Shown here one piece after another: positions 61,043-63,690 of a stretch of DNA of 64,000 bases (positions are counted from its first letter, which is position 1; every line of letters starts with the position of its first letter). Below the pieces are notes generated by a model. The model ran no database searches and was not told where the DNA came from. It saw only the letters and a program-made list of their open reading frames with translations. The DNA is taken from assembly GCF_045037415.1 (NCBI RefSeq), contig NZ_CP173440.1; one strand, written 5' to 3'. The position numbers were made by a program, and so were the translations under genes. Source of the DNA: Escherichia coli. Lineage in GTDB: Bacteria > Pseudomonadota > Gammaproteobacteria > Enterobacterales > Enterobacteriaceae.

Positions 61043-61280
61043 ATTGATTACATTATAAACTATTTAGCCCCACCACCAACCCCCTATTTTCATCACACTC
61101 GAATAGAGTCTCAACTCAAAAAGGAGAGCTTTACAGCCCATAGTGCATAGTGTATCCGTTGATACACAGATGCTTCCGCTGGCCGATATGAAAAGCAGTC
61201 GTTGTTTATGTGCTGCACAGGTCCGGAAAGTTACTTTTTTTCCACGGCCATCGACACAGCACCCCGGCGGTTCTACCCAA
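61043..61280. repeat. conserved upstream cassette, copy 1
   Basis: About 85% identical by eye to 63464-63690. Contains TATAAT near the gene-proximal end, the palindrome GTGTATC-CGTT-GATACAC and an AAAGTTACTTT site. Confidence 0.8.
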
Positions 61281-61365
61281 TAAATTCTGGGACTCCAGGC
61301 TATCCAGCTTGAGCACTTGCACACGGGAACGACTTTCTATACCAGACGCGGGGCATAACCTATCA

Positions 61366-61887
61366 AAAACTCGCACTAAACATGGTTCAAGACCCGGGTA
61401 CGATGCCGATATAAGTCACTTTTTTGTACGCGGTGAAAAGTCACTTTGTTGAATGTTTGAAAATGGGGGCTTTGAGGAGGCTTTCGAATATTTATAATGA
61501 GAGACTGTTAAAGCTGCTGGTGGATCTGACATGACATTTCTCAAATCTCTGGACTCGCCGCCGTTCATCGCAACATATCGTTGGGCGGGGTCATTCGATG
61601 GACGGTATATGCCACAGGCATATTCGCTTTTGCTGGAACTGAATCAACACACGTATCTGCCGGTGGTTAAAGCCGAGTTTGATATCTGTATCATCAGCTG
61701 CGGTAAGGAGTGGTGGCGCTTCAGGCTGGTGGATGTGAAATCTGATGAACGTCAGGAAGGAATGGTAACCCGGACGGCATACCGGCTAAAACCGTCAATG
61801 GGGATCGCTGAGCAAATGGTTAACATGATCCGCGCCTGGCAGTCCGTACCGTACCTTAATCCTCCTGCATCTGACTACTTTAGGTAA
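61366..61887 (+). repeat. 0.52 kb duplicated module, copy B
   Basis: Direct repeat of 40729-41251. Confidence 0.85.
61531..61887 (+). CDS. hypothetical protein, paralogue B
   Basis: 118 aa, near-identical to the 40895-41251 product. Confidence 0.55.
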   Translation: MTFLKSLDSPPFIATYRWAGSFDGRYMPQAYSLLLELNQHTYLPVVKAEFDICIISCGKEWWRFRLVDVKSDERQEGMVTRTAYRLKPSMGIAEQMVNMIRAWQSVPYLNPPASDYFR

Positions 61888-62360
61888 AGCGTACCTCGCA
61901 GACAGCGACGTGAACGACGCAAAGAACATTCTTGCGGCAGGACATTGCCGTCTGGCTGCAGGAATCCCCGTCCTTTAGGGCGGGGAGGATGTCAACCGTT
62001 CCGCCAGGGCAGATTTGCTTAACCCAGCCTTTTATCGCATGTCGTACAGTATTTCGACCAGTGACAGTTCTTTAACTGCTCTTTGGTAAGCCCGGATTGC
62101 CTCCGGGGAGTTGAGCAGACTTTCTTTGACCCGGTTAAATGGGATGCCTTTTACTTTCATTAGCTCATCTCCTTCAGGTGCTTTCTCGCTATCTCTGCGA
62201 TCCGCCTGATGACTGGGAAAACCTGATCACTGAACCTGGAGCATCTACTTTGTTGATACATTATACTGTGGGTTTTTCCGTCCGGAACTGACAAAATGCT
62301 ACACTTCGGATTAAAATACATTAGGGAAGATAGTATTTAGAAAGTGATGGGGAAATTATT

Positions 62361-62973
62361 ATGTTTAAAGAGATTAAAAAATGGTTTGTTAAGGGCGTCA
62401 ATTATGAGACTGAGTTCATCGCAGCCGTAAAGCGATCCAAGAAGTGGAAACTTGAAGTTCCTAATATCTCTTTAAAAAAGACTCCATTTCTTGCTGGGGA
62501 AAGGGCTGCTATAGCTTTAAAAGTTATTCAGGACTATGCTTCAATGCATAGCCCGGAGGAAGTATCTCAACAATGTTTTGGGTATATGTATGGAATTCAG
62601 AGTGCTTTGGAAAACGCTTTACAAACTCCACTATATTATACATTAGGTTATATTGAATTTGAAAAGAGAACCAGTGTTTCATACAGAAATTCCAAAATTA
62701 GAAAGGAATTTGTATAATCCAGTTTCAGGCGTTGGGGCGATTGATTTACATGCCTGGCTGACGACTCCTAATCTTGAAATCATTGATCTTACTTTCGCAA
62801 CAACATATGGTATTGTGAATGATATTCCATCAGTAATTGGACGTTCTTCCTTTCAACATTACTCTGAGTTTAATGATAACATGGTCTATCATCCTCAATT
62901 AATCGGCGACGATTATTTGAAGAAGATTGGAGCCATCGTTGATTATAGTTCGTTGAATATTATTATTACGTAG
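62361..62973 (+). pseudogene. AT-rich gene apparently split by a frameshift
   Basis: Two overlapping ORFs (62361-62717 and 62653-62973) in different frames; overlap falls in an A-rich tract (gaaaagagaacc). Both halves are AT-rich. Confidence 0.3.
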
Positions 62974-63108
62974 TGCAGATAGCTATCGGTTATTATATAA
63001 CTAGGGGCATTCCTTGTTTTATCAGGCGCTTTGTAAATGTTTTCCTTCAGGGGGTGATATAAGGCGGGTTTTACGGTTAACAAAGCACCTTATTTTCTGA
63101 ATAACGGA

Positions 63109-63423
63109 TTAATAACGCTCAAAATCATATTCTCGGTCAAAATCATAGTTTTTGCCTAGATTTTCATGAAGAGCCTCAACCCTTCCTTCATTTTGATGAG
63201 ACGGTCTCTGTATAGAAACATGAATTCCAGATACACCGGACGAAGCCTCAAAACCTTTAGCCTGTTTTGCGGCAGCACAAGATTGTTTTCGGTTTTTAAG
63301 AACTTTCTGTAAGCCTAGTAAAACGATGGAGAAGGCAAACAGCCCATAAAAACAATAAGTTACATAATCCCAATGCAGAAAATTAGCCATTGTGTATCTC
63401 ATATTTATAGTTGTTGAACACAT
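63109..63423 (-). CDS. hypothetical small membrane protein
   Basis: Probable start MANFLHW; TM helix YCFYGLFAFSIVLLGL; preceded by the conserved upstream cassette. Confidence 0.4.
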   Translation of the reverse strand: MCSTTINMRYTMANFLHWDYVTYCFYGLFAFSIVLLGLQKVLKNRKQSCAAAKQAKGFEASSGVSGIHVSIQRPSHQNEGRVEALHENLGKNYDFDREYDFERY

Positions 63424-63463
63424 TAGAGCCTATCGTCCTTGTATAGCCCTTAGCCTCTCTCAT

Positions 63464-63690
63464 TTGATTACATTATAAACTATTTAACCCAGCCTCCAAC
63501 CCCCTGTTTTCATCACCCCCGGATGCAGCCTCAACTCTAAAAGGGGGCTTTACAGGCCATAGTCCATGGTGTATCCGTTGATACACAGTTGTTATCGCTG
63601 ACTGGCTATGAAAAACAGTCGTTGTTTATGCGCTGCACAGGCCCGGAAAGTTACTTTTTTCTCAGCCATCGAAACAGCACCCCGGCAGTT
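63464..63690. repeat. conserved upstream cassette, copy 2
   Basis: Direct repeat of 61043-61280 with the same internal palindromes. Confidence 0.8.

Follow-up and report, generated by a model that had tools for sequence, protein, structure and literature searches.

Control-region cassettes next to traG in a pNDM-MAR-like plasmid: a putative sigma-70 promoter, a local palindrome and a putative KorB-like operator

The stretch of DNA analysed in this study (64,000 nucleotides of the Escherichia coli contig NZ_CP173440.1, assembly GCF_045037415.1; termed the window, with position 1 as its first nucleotide) contains two similar non-coding segments near its right-hand end, termed cassettes A and B. 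Each cassette lies upstream of a small minus-strand gene, termed small genes A and B, and small gene A is located directly after the transfer gene traG. The cassette is probably, at a moderate level of confidence, a control region of a pNDM-MAR-like plasmid, in which a sigma-70 promoter of a candidate exclusion gene is combined with a distal KorB-like operator and with a palindrome specific to the cassette. Loci of other plasmids used for comparison are designated by L numbers.

Extent and conservation of the cassettes

When regions 61019-61330 and 63424-63740 are aligned with MAFFT, the mean column identity of cassettes A and B is 86%. A repeat search detects four co-linear pairs, 61038-61124/63458-63544 (84%), 61120-61181/63539-63600 (84%), 61187-61240/63607-63660 (94%) and 61237-61291/63655-63709 (82%), and the offset between the two members of these pairs is constant at 2418-2420 bp. 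The true extent is ~61038-61291 for cassette A and ~63458-63709 for cassette B, which is slightly larger than first stated. The initial annotation, which described a duplicate of ~85% identity located directly upstream of the unrelated minus-strand open reading frames (ORFs) 60731-61018 and 63109-63423, is confirmed in these respects by the 86% identity of the alignment, by the 82-94% identity of the co-linear pieces, by the positions of the two ORFs and by the lack of BLASTP similarity between the two small proteins. A TATAAT sequence, the perfect inverted repeat GTGTATC-CGTT-GATACAC and AAAGTTACTTT, which it reported for each cassette, are all found at the places given for them.

The 23-mer TTGATTACATTATAAACTATTTA occurs at 61044 and 63464 and nowhere else in the window (0 expected), and it contains the minus-strand TATAAT at 61052-61057 and 63472-63477. 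The 18-mer GTGTATCCGTTGATACAC is similarly confined to 61150-61167 and 63569-63586 in the window, with 0.02 occurrences expected even when three mismatches are allowed. The GTGTATC-N4/5-GATACAC palindrome is conserved across the plasmid family with a spacer of 4 or 5 nt depending on the lineage, and its half-sites GTGTATC and GATACAC are not enriched elsewhere in the window. AAAGTTACTTT is located at 61227-61237 and 63647-63657.

The conservation of the cassette is measured against the most distant lineage available (L009/L017), for which the nucleotide identity is 70% in traG and 63% in the helicase gene to the right of the cassette. The cassette as a whole is 64-72% identical to that of this lineage, but the identity is unevenly distributed. 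The proximal ~125 bp, which contain TATAAT, the -35 region, the GGGGGCTTTACAG block and the palindrome, are ~84% identical, whereas the next ~50 bp are only ~36% identical. In the 25-bp window containing CCCGGAAAGTTACTTTT, 20-21 of the 25 positions are identical, and the identity falls again to ~36% in the remainder of the cassette. Such uneven identity is the pattern that discrete protein-binding or promoter elements would produce. The view that the non-coding cassette is more conserved than the genes holds inside the window, where the cassette exceeds the genes because the small genes are different alleles. It does not hold against the L009/L017 lineage, in which the cassette is conserved no better than traG and the helicase gene, and only two parts of it, the proximal 125 bp and the island around AAAGTTACTTT, are distinctly better conserved.

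Putative promoter in the gene-proximal part of the cassette

A sigma-70-type promoter is plausible in the gene-proximal ~60 bp of each cassette, with the transcription start predicted near 61045 for cassette A and near 63465 for cassette B. In cassette A, the putative promoter is preceded by AAAATAGGGGG, a 14-mer spanning 61077-61090. In cassette B, the minus strand reads AAAACAGGGGG-TTGGAG, 16 nt and TATAAT. This promoter block is invariant or nearly so in all lineages.

The sequence AAAATAGGGGsTTG is found six times in the window when up to two mismatches are allowed, as compared with 0.68 expected, and these six include both cassettes and the promoter of ORF118, a gene located between the two cassettes. 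The promoter-like layout of AAAATAGGGGsTTGnnG, 16-17 nt and TAnnnT is found at 61090, 63510, 61460, 17386, 13218 and 7606, ahead of several unrelated small genes. It is also found ahead of a ParB-like gene of the related plasmid NZ_CP050380.1 (position 17896 of L002). In several copies of the layout, the A-tract is preceded by a AAAGTNACTTT site at a distance of 14-16 nt. The shared layout is suggestive of a promoter family.

AAAGTNACTTT palindrome family

The AAAGTTACTTT site is present in both cassettes as the initial annotation had stated, but it is not specific to them, being one of 30 exact copies of AAAGTNACTTT in the 64 kb of the window, as compared with 0.11 copies in dinucleotide shuffles. 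These copies are located at 5265-63657 with a density of ~0.47/kb. AAAGTNACTTT is the top palindrome of the window in an unbiased enumeration of 5+gap+5 palindromes, ahead of the CRISPR repeats. Only R at position -1 and Y at position +1 are conserved in its flanks. Because the flanks are otherwise not conserved, the motif stands by itself as a 13-bp palindrome, R-AAAGTNACTTT-Y, and does not belong to a longer dispersed repeat element. With the RefSeq annotation of L002, 17 of 22 sites are intergenic as compared with 25.8% intergenic DNA (binomial p = 6.6e-7), and five of the intergenic sites lie 112-121 bp before the next ATG. Only two sites are located in the accessory stretch 21297-34500, which contains IS4321, CRISPR-Cas, a group II intron, umuDC and a RES-Xre module.

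AAAGTNACTTT is equally dominant in L001, L002, L010, L011, L013-L017, L021-L023 and L025-L027, and is found at 14 sites in 41 kb of the IncHI1 plasmid pO111_1 and at 12 sites in 41 kb of an IncHI2 plasmid. The proposal of two operator types in the cassette gains support from these results, in the sense that the sequences point to a plasmid-wide AAAGTNACTTT family, associated with a KorB/ParB-like protein, and to a cassette-specific GTGTATC palindrome. Full-text searches for the AAAGTNACTTT motif and for regulation in IncHI and pNDM-MAR plasmids find no description of the motif in the library searched, and those for the motif itself return only unrelated papers.

At the start of traH/trhH (55365-55392), two AAAGTNACTTT copies are located 17 bp apart, one over the ribosome-binding region and the other inside the KKLLL codons of the signal peptide, and the site at the trhH start is shared by the IncHI1 (L022 38997) and IncHI2 (L023 40569) plasmids. 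In the mobI-trhR intergenic region (51329-51922), which is probably the oriT and promoter region, three direct repeats of ~41 nt are arranged around AAAAAGTACTAATGAAA (51582-51723), and AAAGTAACTTT is found at 51440 and 51542.

Candidate KorB/ParB-like protein

An orphan protein of the KorB/ParB family most likely binds or loads at the AAAGTNACTTT palindrome, as suggested by the position of the palindrome relative to the gene for such a protein. In NZ_CP050380.1, five sites are located within 575 bp upstream of the start of the gene for WP_004197197.1 (413 aa), and a sixth is located farther upstream. An exact site is also found 13-260 bp upstream of genes for homologues with 32-47% identity in nine further loci, including IncHI1 and IncHI2 plasmids. 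A site or a cluster of sites therefore precedes the ParB-like gene in 10 of the 11 loci examined, the exception being L025, in which only a site with one mismatch is found. The homologues are 45-47% identical in L011 and L013-L016, ~36% identical in pO111_1 (IncHI1) and the IncHI2 plasmid, and 32-38% identical in L025-L027, in which the gene contexts are different, and AAAGTNACTTT is the top palindrome in each of these loci. The protein is found in 528 plasmids of PLSDB at 60% identity or more.

WP_004197197.1 matches the PHROG 'ParB-like partition protein' at 8e-24. A profile built from 70 homologues matches ParB, Spo0J and Noc proteins of solved structure at ~1e-16 and KorB at 1.5e-6, and 54 of the 70 homologues match HTH_ParB of Pfam. 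When an AlphaFold model of the protein (predicted local distance difference test score, 82.6) is compared with the PDB, the best matches are to RK2 KorB (E = 8e-8; target-normalised template modelling score, <=0.66), followed by ParB bound to cytidine triphosphate (CTP) and Noc.

It is rather unlikely that AAAGTNACTTT, taken as a genuine operator of the whole plasmid, is bound not by the ParB-like protein but by a different regulator, such as a TrhR/TrhY-like or HtdA-like protein of IncHI plasmids or a host factor. The sites in the mobI-trhR intergenic region and at the trhH/traH start are present in all three IncHI lineages examined, which speaks for such a regulator, and the co-occurrence of gene and motif could stem merely from a shared backbone. 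In contrast, the ParB-like gene is preceded by a site or a cluster of sites at a distance of 13-260 bp in 10 of the 11 loci, which include L025-L027 with their different contexts, and this favours the KorB/ParB-like protein. An exact site is expected in 260 bp by chance with a probability of only ~2.5e-4. Dispersion of a short palindrome of odd length is also the known behaviour of KorB and its operator OB (PMC11790492).

RNA, coding and single-strand signals

The initial annotation also offered a structured 5' leader as an explanation, together with a check by folding and covariation across plasmids. It is very unlikely that transcription of the cassette yields a structured 5' leader or a small RNA in which the palindromes form hairpins. 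A scan of 60000-64000 against Rfam at E <= 1 detects nothing in the cassettes and two weak chance matches outside them. Folding of the cassettes as single-stranded DNA, for both strands, gives z-scores of -0.95 and -1.64 relative to shuffled sequences without a dominant hairpin, and the minimum free energies are -29.6 to -32.7 kcal/mol as compared with shuffle means of -24.3 to -29.3 kcal/mol. RNAalifold gives only -18 kcal/mol with a covariation term of +0.88 for 257 columns of seven distinct cassette variants, a test of low power with ~7 distinct sequences. The comparison across plasmids thus yields weak structure and no covariation. Most of the cassette would lie upstream of the predicted transcription start, because the TATAAT is located at its gene-proximal end. 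Alignment columns 130-185 are not conserved in L009.

Several details of the sequence speak for an RNA. The 7-bp palindrome is the only robust stem in the cassette, and its spacer of 4 or 5 nt suits the loop of a hairpin better than a dimeric operator; with this variation, a rigid dimer operator is slightly less likely than a hairpin or a flexible site. The variant GATATAT of L007 retains G-U pairs on the plus strand, and one possible compensatory change is found in a stem on both sides of AAAGTTACTTT, where cassette A has TGGCCG/CGGCCA and cassette B has TGGCT/AGCCA. A weak hairpin followed by a T-run is found on the minus strand at 61139-61126, but its stem is lost across lineages, in which the paired positions are GC, CC or GG. 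A conserved small ORF in the cassette was considered and rejected: the plus-strand frames of 31 and 32 aa diverge after a 2-nt indel, and an in-frame stop is present in L007.

It is extremely unlikely that the cassette is a single-strand promoter or priming signal like Frpo or ssi, or the remnant of a mobile repeat such as a miniature inverted-repeat transposable element or an insertion sequence (IS) end. In favour of such readings, the plasmid is conjugative, transfer genes adjoin the cassette, palindromes lie within it and an inverted repeat of 9 nt flanks cassette A (61017-61025 and 61273-61281). However, single-stranded DNA of either strand folds little better than shuffled sequence and forms no long imperfect hairpin, and the flanking 9-nt repeat is missing in cassette B. 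The cassette is also confined to one locus of one plasmid family, with none among 100,044 species-representative genomes, and no mobile-element feature is annotated at it.

Distribution of the cassette and origin of the two copies

The cassette sequence is found at 643 places in 566 plasmids of PLSDB, of which 534 are from Klebsiella and 557 are typed as conjugative. Two places per record are found only with a cassette of the A type at 99% identity or more. A second blastn search with the most divergent cassette as the query detects the same 566 plasmids and nothing more distant. The pattern ATTATAAACTATTTA-N50-75-GGCTTTACAG, which matches the window and eight loci, has 0 matches in the 100,044 species-representative genomes. 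Homologues of the helicase with 53-55% identity were followed as a route to further cassettes and rejected, being located in unrelated contexts without traG.

The window resembles the IncFIB/IncHI1B, MOBH, MPF_F plasmids of Klebsiella (pNDM-MAR-like), and its last 12 kb are 99.98% identical to p51015_NDM_1 (NZ_CP050380.1). In seven lineages, the gene order is traF, traH and traG on the plus strand, a small gene on the minus strand, a single cassette and a superfamily 1 (SF1) helicase gene on the plus strand. The cassette is a fixed intergenic region of the backbone, with the small gene that follows traG on one side and the helicase gene on the other, and no wandering element. The designation of the cassette as a portable regulatory unit is misleading in this respect, as it is found in 566 plasmids always at one locus and normally in one copy.

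Two copies are present in the window because two allelic versions of the region are separated by ~2.2 kb with additional genes. This segment contains the ORF118 module, a 42-aa ORF, a 203-aa gene and the second small gene, which is of class B. The plasmid thus has two different alleles of the small gene, and a separate copy of the control region belongs to each of them. The duplication arose by a rearrangement specific to this lineage, and the duplicated cassette by itself is ordinary plasmid mosaicism. Cassette B is nearly identical to the cassette of L005/L006, although L005/L006 carry a class-A gene, and it adjoins a class-B gene that resembles those of L004/L007. The locus of L003 is likewise a mosaic, in which an inserted class-B small gene is followed by a truncated class-A remnant, the cassette and ORF118. 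The ORF118 module is present or absent depending on the lineage.

This mosaic structure, with the comings and goings of the ORF118 module, would also be expected if the cassette were mainly a patch of homology for shuffling small-gene alleles, with a regulatory content incidental to its duplication, and the direct copies 2420 bp apart could recombine and thereby delete the genes between them. Such a role as the main one is nevertheless unlikely. Discrete blocks are selectively conserved amid diverged sequence, which points to a sequence-specific function, and the cassette occurs in only one or two copies per plasmid and always at the same locus. A role in recombination would be compatible with the favoured reading of the cassette as a control region.

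Small genes, TraG and exclusion

Small proteins A and B each have one N-terminal hydrophobic segment according to the Kyte-Doolittle scale. The small genes fall into two N-terminal classes, MMYELFGF... (class A) and MANFL.WDY... (class B), and their C-terminal tails are hypervariable and wholly different between lineages. Compared with the most distant lineage, the identity of TraG is 79-98% over the N-terminal ~600 aa but only 41-71% over the C-terminal ~700 aa. When the C-terminal 579 aa are compared, the TraG variants group according to the class of the adjacent small gene, with 73-100% identity within class B and 48-59% identity between groups. This co-clustering could result from physical linkage alone.

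In the IncC plasmid pVCR94, the entry-exclusion gene eexC (vcrx145) is located next to traG and works with TraG (PMC11493245). By positional analogy with IncC, the small genes are plausible candidates for exclusion factors, in which case two types of donor might be excluded by a plasmid that carries two alleles. As in the eex/traG pairs of SXT/R391 and IncA/IncC, a small gene of the inner-membrane type follows traG on a MOBH/MPF_F backbone and its alleles are variable; the variants of TraG that accompany them may reflect linkage alone. Unlike these pairs, the small proteins have no sequence similarity to a named family, and they are shorter (93-104 aa) with one hydrophobic segment.

Proposed mechanism and relation to known systems

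In the favoured reading, which takes the cassette as a divergent intergenic control region with two operator kinds, located at the traG-distal end of the transfer region, the putative promoter would fire leftward into the gene for a small single-pass membrane protein. A KorB-like protein, encoded elsewhere on the plasmid (as WP_004197197.1 is in NZ_CP050380.1), would load at the AAAGTTACTTT site of the cassette and, by analogy with KorB, would control the promoters to its left and right, by repression or possibly by activation. The target on the left would be the small gene, and that on the right would be ORF118 or the helicase gene, so that both would join a plasmid-wide regulon. The 7-bp inverted repeat would act as a local operator or as a small hairpin and provide a second, local input.

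Several observations weigh against this reading. A generic promoter scan gives no call at the cassette promoter, of which the -35 sequence is weak, and the AAAGTNACTTT-type site of the cassette lies ~140 bp farther from the -35 sequence than in the other promoters of the family. WP_004197197.1 alone gives no significant match in sequence searches of Pfam, NCBIfam and the PDB. Its arginine patch is GHCRHRA rather than GERRxRA, where the consensus of the family is DGHCRxRA with G101 and R104 invariant, and CTP binding by the protein is uncertain. No ParA-like gene is annotated among the genes adjacent to the ParB-like gene in L002, L022 and L023. The ParB-like gene lies outside the window, in which region 17007-21296 differs from NZ_CP050380.1; its presence on the source plasmid would be expected from close relatives. 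The link between protein and site is one of co-location, part of which could be produced by a shared ancestry of the backbone. With respect to exclusion, the small proteins match no known Eex family in NCBIfam, PHROGs and PADLOC, entry exclusion in R27 (IncHI1) is assigned to the Z operon and not to the gene after trhG (PMC7366339), and trhG of the IncHI1 plasmid pO111_1 is followed by an IS without the cassette.

KorB is a ParB-family protein that recognises the short, odd-length palindrome OB (core, TTTAGCGGCTAAA), which is dispersed on RK2 (PMC11790492). The arrangement in the window resembles the KorB-OB and KorA-OA systems of RK2 in that a dispersed palindrome is located at variable distances from promoters and at the gene of the protein itself. 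Like RK2, in which OB is combined with a different palindrome, OA, in some promoter regions, the cassette pairs two different palindromes, and the predicted structure of the candidate protein is closest to KorB. The cassette would thereby resemble a promoter region of the KorB class II type with two kinds of operator, as a candidate member of the KorB system. Unlike RK2, the site sequence is unrelated to OB, the backbone is of the IncHI-like MOBH/MPF_F type, no incC/ParA or korA partner is seen beside the gene and the arginine patch is GHCRHRA. RK2 (60 kb) has 12 OB sites, or ~0.2/kb, as compared with ~0.47/kb in the window.

The cassette is also like the CUP elements of the IncN plasmids pKM101/R46, a likeness by description only, in being a conserved non-coding segment upstream of unrelated genes, with two copies here and one in most plasmids of the family. 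CUP elements consist of a promoter and a site for the ArdK repressor and have been proposed to promote module shuffling (Delver and Belogurov 1997, cited in PMC6289460). They differ from the cassette in that several copies are located in the leading region and the repressor ArdK is a helix-turn-helix protein, whereas one or two cassettes are located at traG and the operator is drawn from a larger dispersed family. In NAH7, ParB activates transcription at parS(NAH), the par cluster is complete and the repeats are located near conjugation and partition genes (PMC12421886). A ParB-family protein may by analogy be linked to transcription of transfer genes through repeat copies in the present plasmid as well, but its gene would be an orphan without a complete par cluster. 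Like the Frpo and ssi elements in the leading regions of F-like and IncI plasmids, the cassettes are repeated non-coding elements with inverted repeats upstream of small genes; unlike them, they form no extended hairpin and their folding energy is near that of shuffled sequence.

A wider proposal, which is tentative and has the odds against it, is that IncHI1, IncHI2 and IncHI1B/IncFIB plasmids run an undescribed KorB-like network. In this network, an orphan ParB-family clamp, loading at about one AAAGTNACTTT site per 2-3 kb of backbone, or about a hundred sites per plasmid if the density holds, would silence leading-region, transfer and exclusion genes, the cassette would couple polymorphic TraG-cognate exclusion alleles to it, and the lineage with two cassettes would have gained a second exclusion specificity. 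In Klebsiella, NDM carbapenemases, virulence loci (including hypervirulence genes) and type IV-A3 CRISPR-Cas are carried to a large extent by plasmids of the pNDM-MAR-like type. To our knowledge, the regulation of their transfer is poorly known beyond TrhR/TrhY/HtdA of R27 and H-NS. If the proposal is true, a single palindrome of 11-13 bp, conserved between IncHI1 and pNDM-MAR-like plasmids, and a KorB-like protein would provide a testable handle on the global control of transfer and establishment genes, and long-range regulation of the KorB type would gain a second natural example, outside IncP. Taken alone, the duplicated cassette is of modest importance, and illustrates the reuse of a control region upon gain of a second allele of a polymorphic traG-linked gene. 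If the small genes encode exclusion factors, they would bear on which plasmids enter a cell that already carries a plasmid.

Neighbouring genes and other features of the window

The coordinates of the cassettes, their motifs and the neighbouring genes are listed in Table 1.

Table 1. Cassettes, motifs and neighbouring genes at the right-hand end of the window
Feature	Position	Strand	Basis and remarks
traG/trhG homologue, 1321 aa	56731..60696	+	ORF list and annotation; C-terminal half polymorphic, clusters with class of adjacent small gene
Small gene A, 95 aa, class A (MMYELFGF...)	60731..61018	-	Directly after traG; hypothetical coding sequence in NZ_CP050380.1; candidate entry-exclusion factor
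Cassette A, divergent control region copy	61038..61291	.	Alignment, repeat search and plasmid comparison
Putative sigma-70 promoter of small gene A	61052..61079	-	-35 TTGGTG 61074-61079, 16-nt spacer, -10 TATAAT 61052-61057
Perfect 7-bp inverted repeat GTGTATC-CGTT-GATACAC	61150..61167	.	~-105 to -122 from predicted start; cassette-specific
AAAGTTACTTT copy of R-AAAGTNACTTT-Y palindrome, putative KorB/ParB-like operator	61227..61237	.	~-182 to -192 from predicted start
ORF118 control region	61412..61498	+	Palindrome copies 61412-61422 (one mismatch) and 61437-61447 (exact); AAAATGGGGGCTTTGAG, 16-nt spacer, TATAAT 61493-61498
ORF118, 118 aa	61531..61887	+	No family match; paralogue of 40895-41251
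42-aa ORF	62032..62160	-	Weak partial match to phrog_1373 (phage transcriptional regulator), E = 3.4e-4, profile positions 32-72 of 166
203-aa hypothetical gene	62361..62973	+	Split into two ORFs by 1-bp insertion relative to NZ_CP050380.1
Small gene B, 104 aa from ATG 63423, class B (MANFL.WDY...)	63109..63423	-	RefSeq: 93 aa from 63390
Cassette B	63458..63709	.	-10 TATAAT 63472-63477; -35 TTGGAG 63494-63499; palindrome 63569-63586; AAAGTTACTTT 63647-63657
5' end of SF1 (AAA_11/AAA_12) helicase gene, 1113 aa	63807..64000	+	Usual right-hand neighbour of cassette

Small proteins A and B, the ORF118 protein and the 203-aa protein have no match in NCBIfam, PHROGs and PADLOC. ORF118 and its upstream control region are duplicated, with 40726-41251 and 61361-61888 located 20.6 kb apart at 92-95% identity, and the control region of ORF118 is duplicated from 40726-41124. 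In the copy at 40.8 kb the palindrome site is degenerate, reading AAAGTCGCTTT at 40802. The 42-aa ORF is possibly a remnant of a phage transcriptional-regulator family, and the split 203-aa gene represents either a pseudogene or a sequencing error. No convincing promoter for the helicase gene is found on the plus strand, either by eye or by a generic promoter scan. The helicase (1113 aa; whole gene in L001, 11789-15130) matches MkoC, the helicase of the Mokosh defence system, in PADLOC at E = 3e-70 over most of its length, and its homologues with 53-55% identity are not located in transfer regions. The gene may therefore have a role in defence or anti-defence and not in transfer.

Positions 22929-29403 are occupied by a type IV-A3 CRISPR-Cas locus, with annotated genes that include cas6e and a gene for a DinG-type helicase, and fits the system restricted to IncHI1B/IncFIB plasmids (PMC7434947). 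Its array at 28444-29403 contains at least 13 repeats of 29 nt, GTATTCCCCCCG..GCGGGGGTTATCGG, with a period of 61 nt. Compared with NZ_CP050380.1, region 1-17006 of the window has the opposite orientation and region 17007-21296 consists of different DNA, in which a transposase of the ISL3 family is encoded at 17864-19084 and four AAAGTNACTTT sites are located in a non-coding stretch at 19.3-20.2 kb. The ORF at 20234-21385 is, by reading of its sequence, a candidate for a Rep-like initiator. A direct repeat of 60 nt with 87% identity (3133-3192 and 3361-3420, 228 bp apart) is located in or near a minus-strand ORF.

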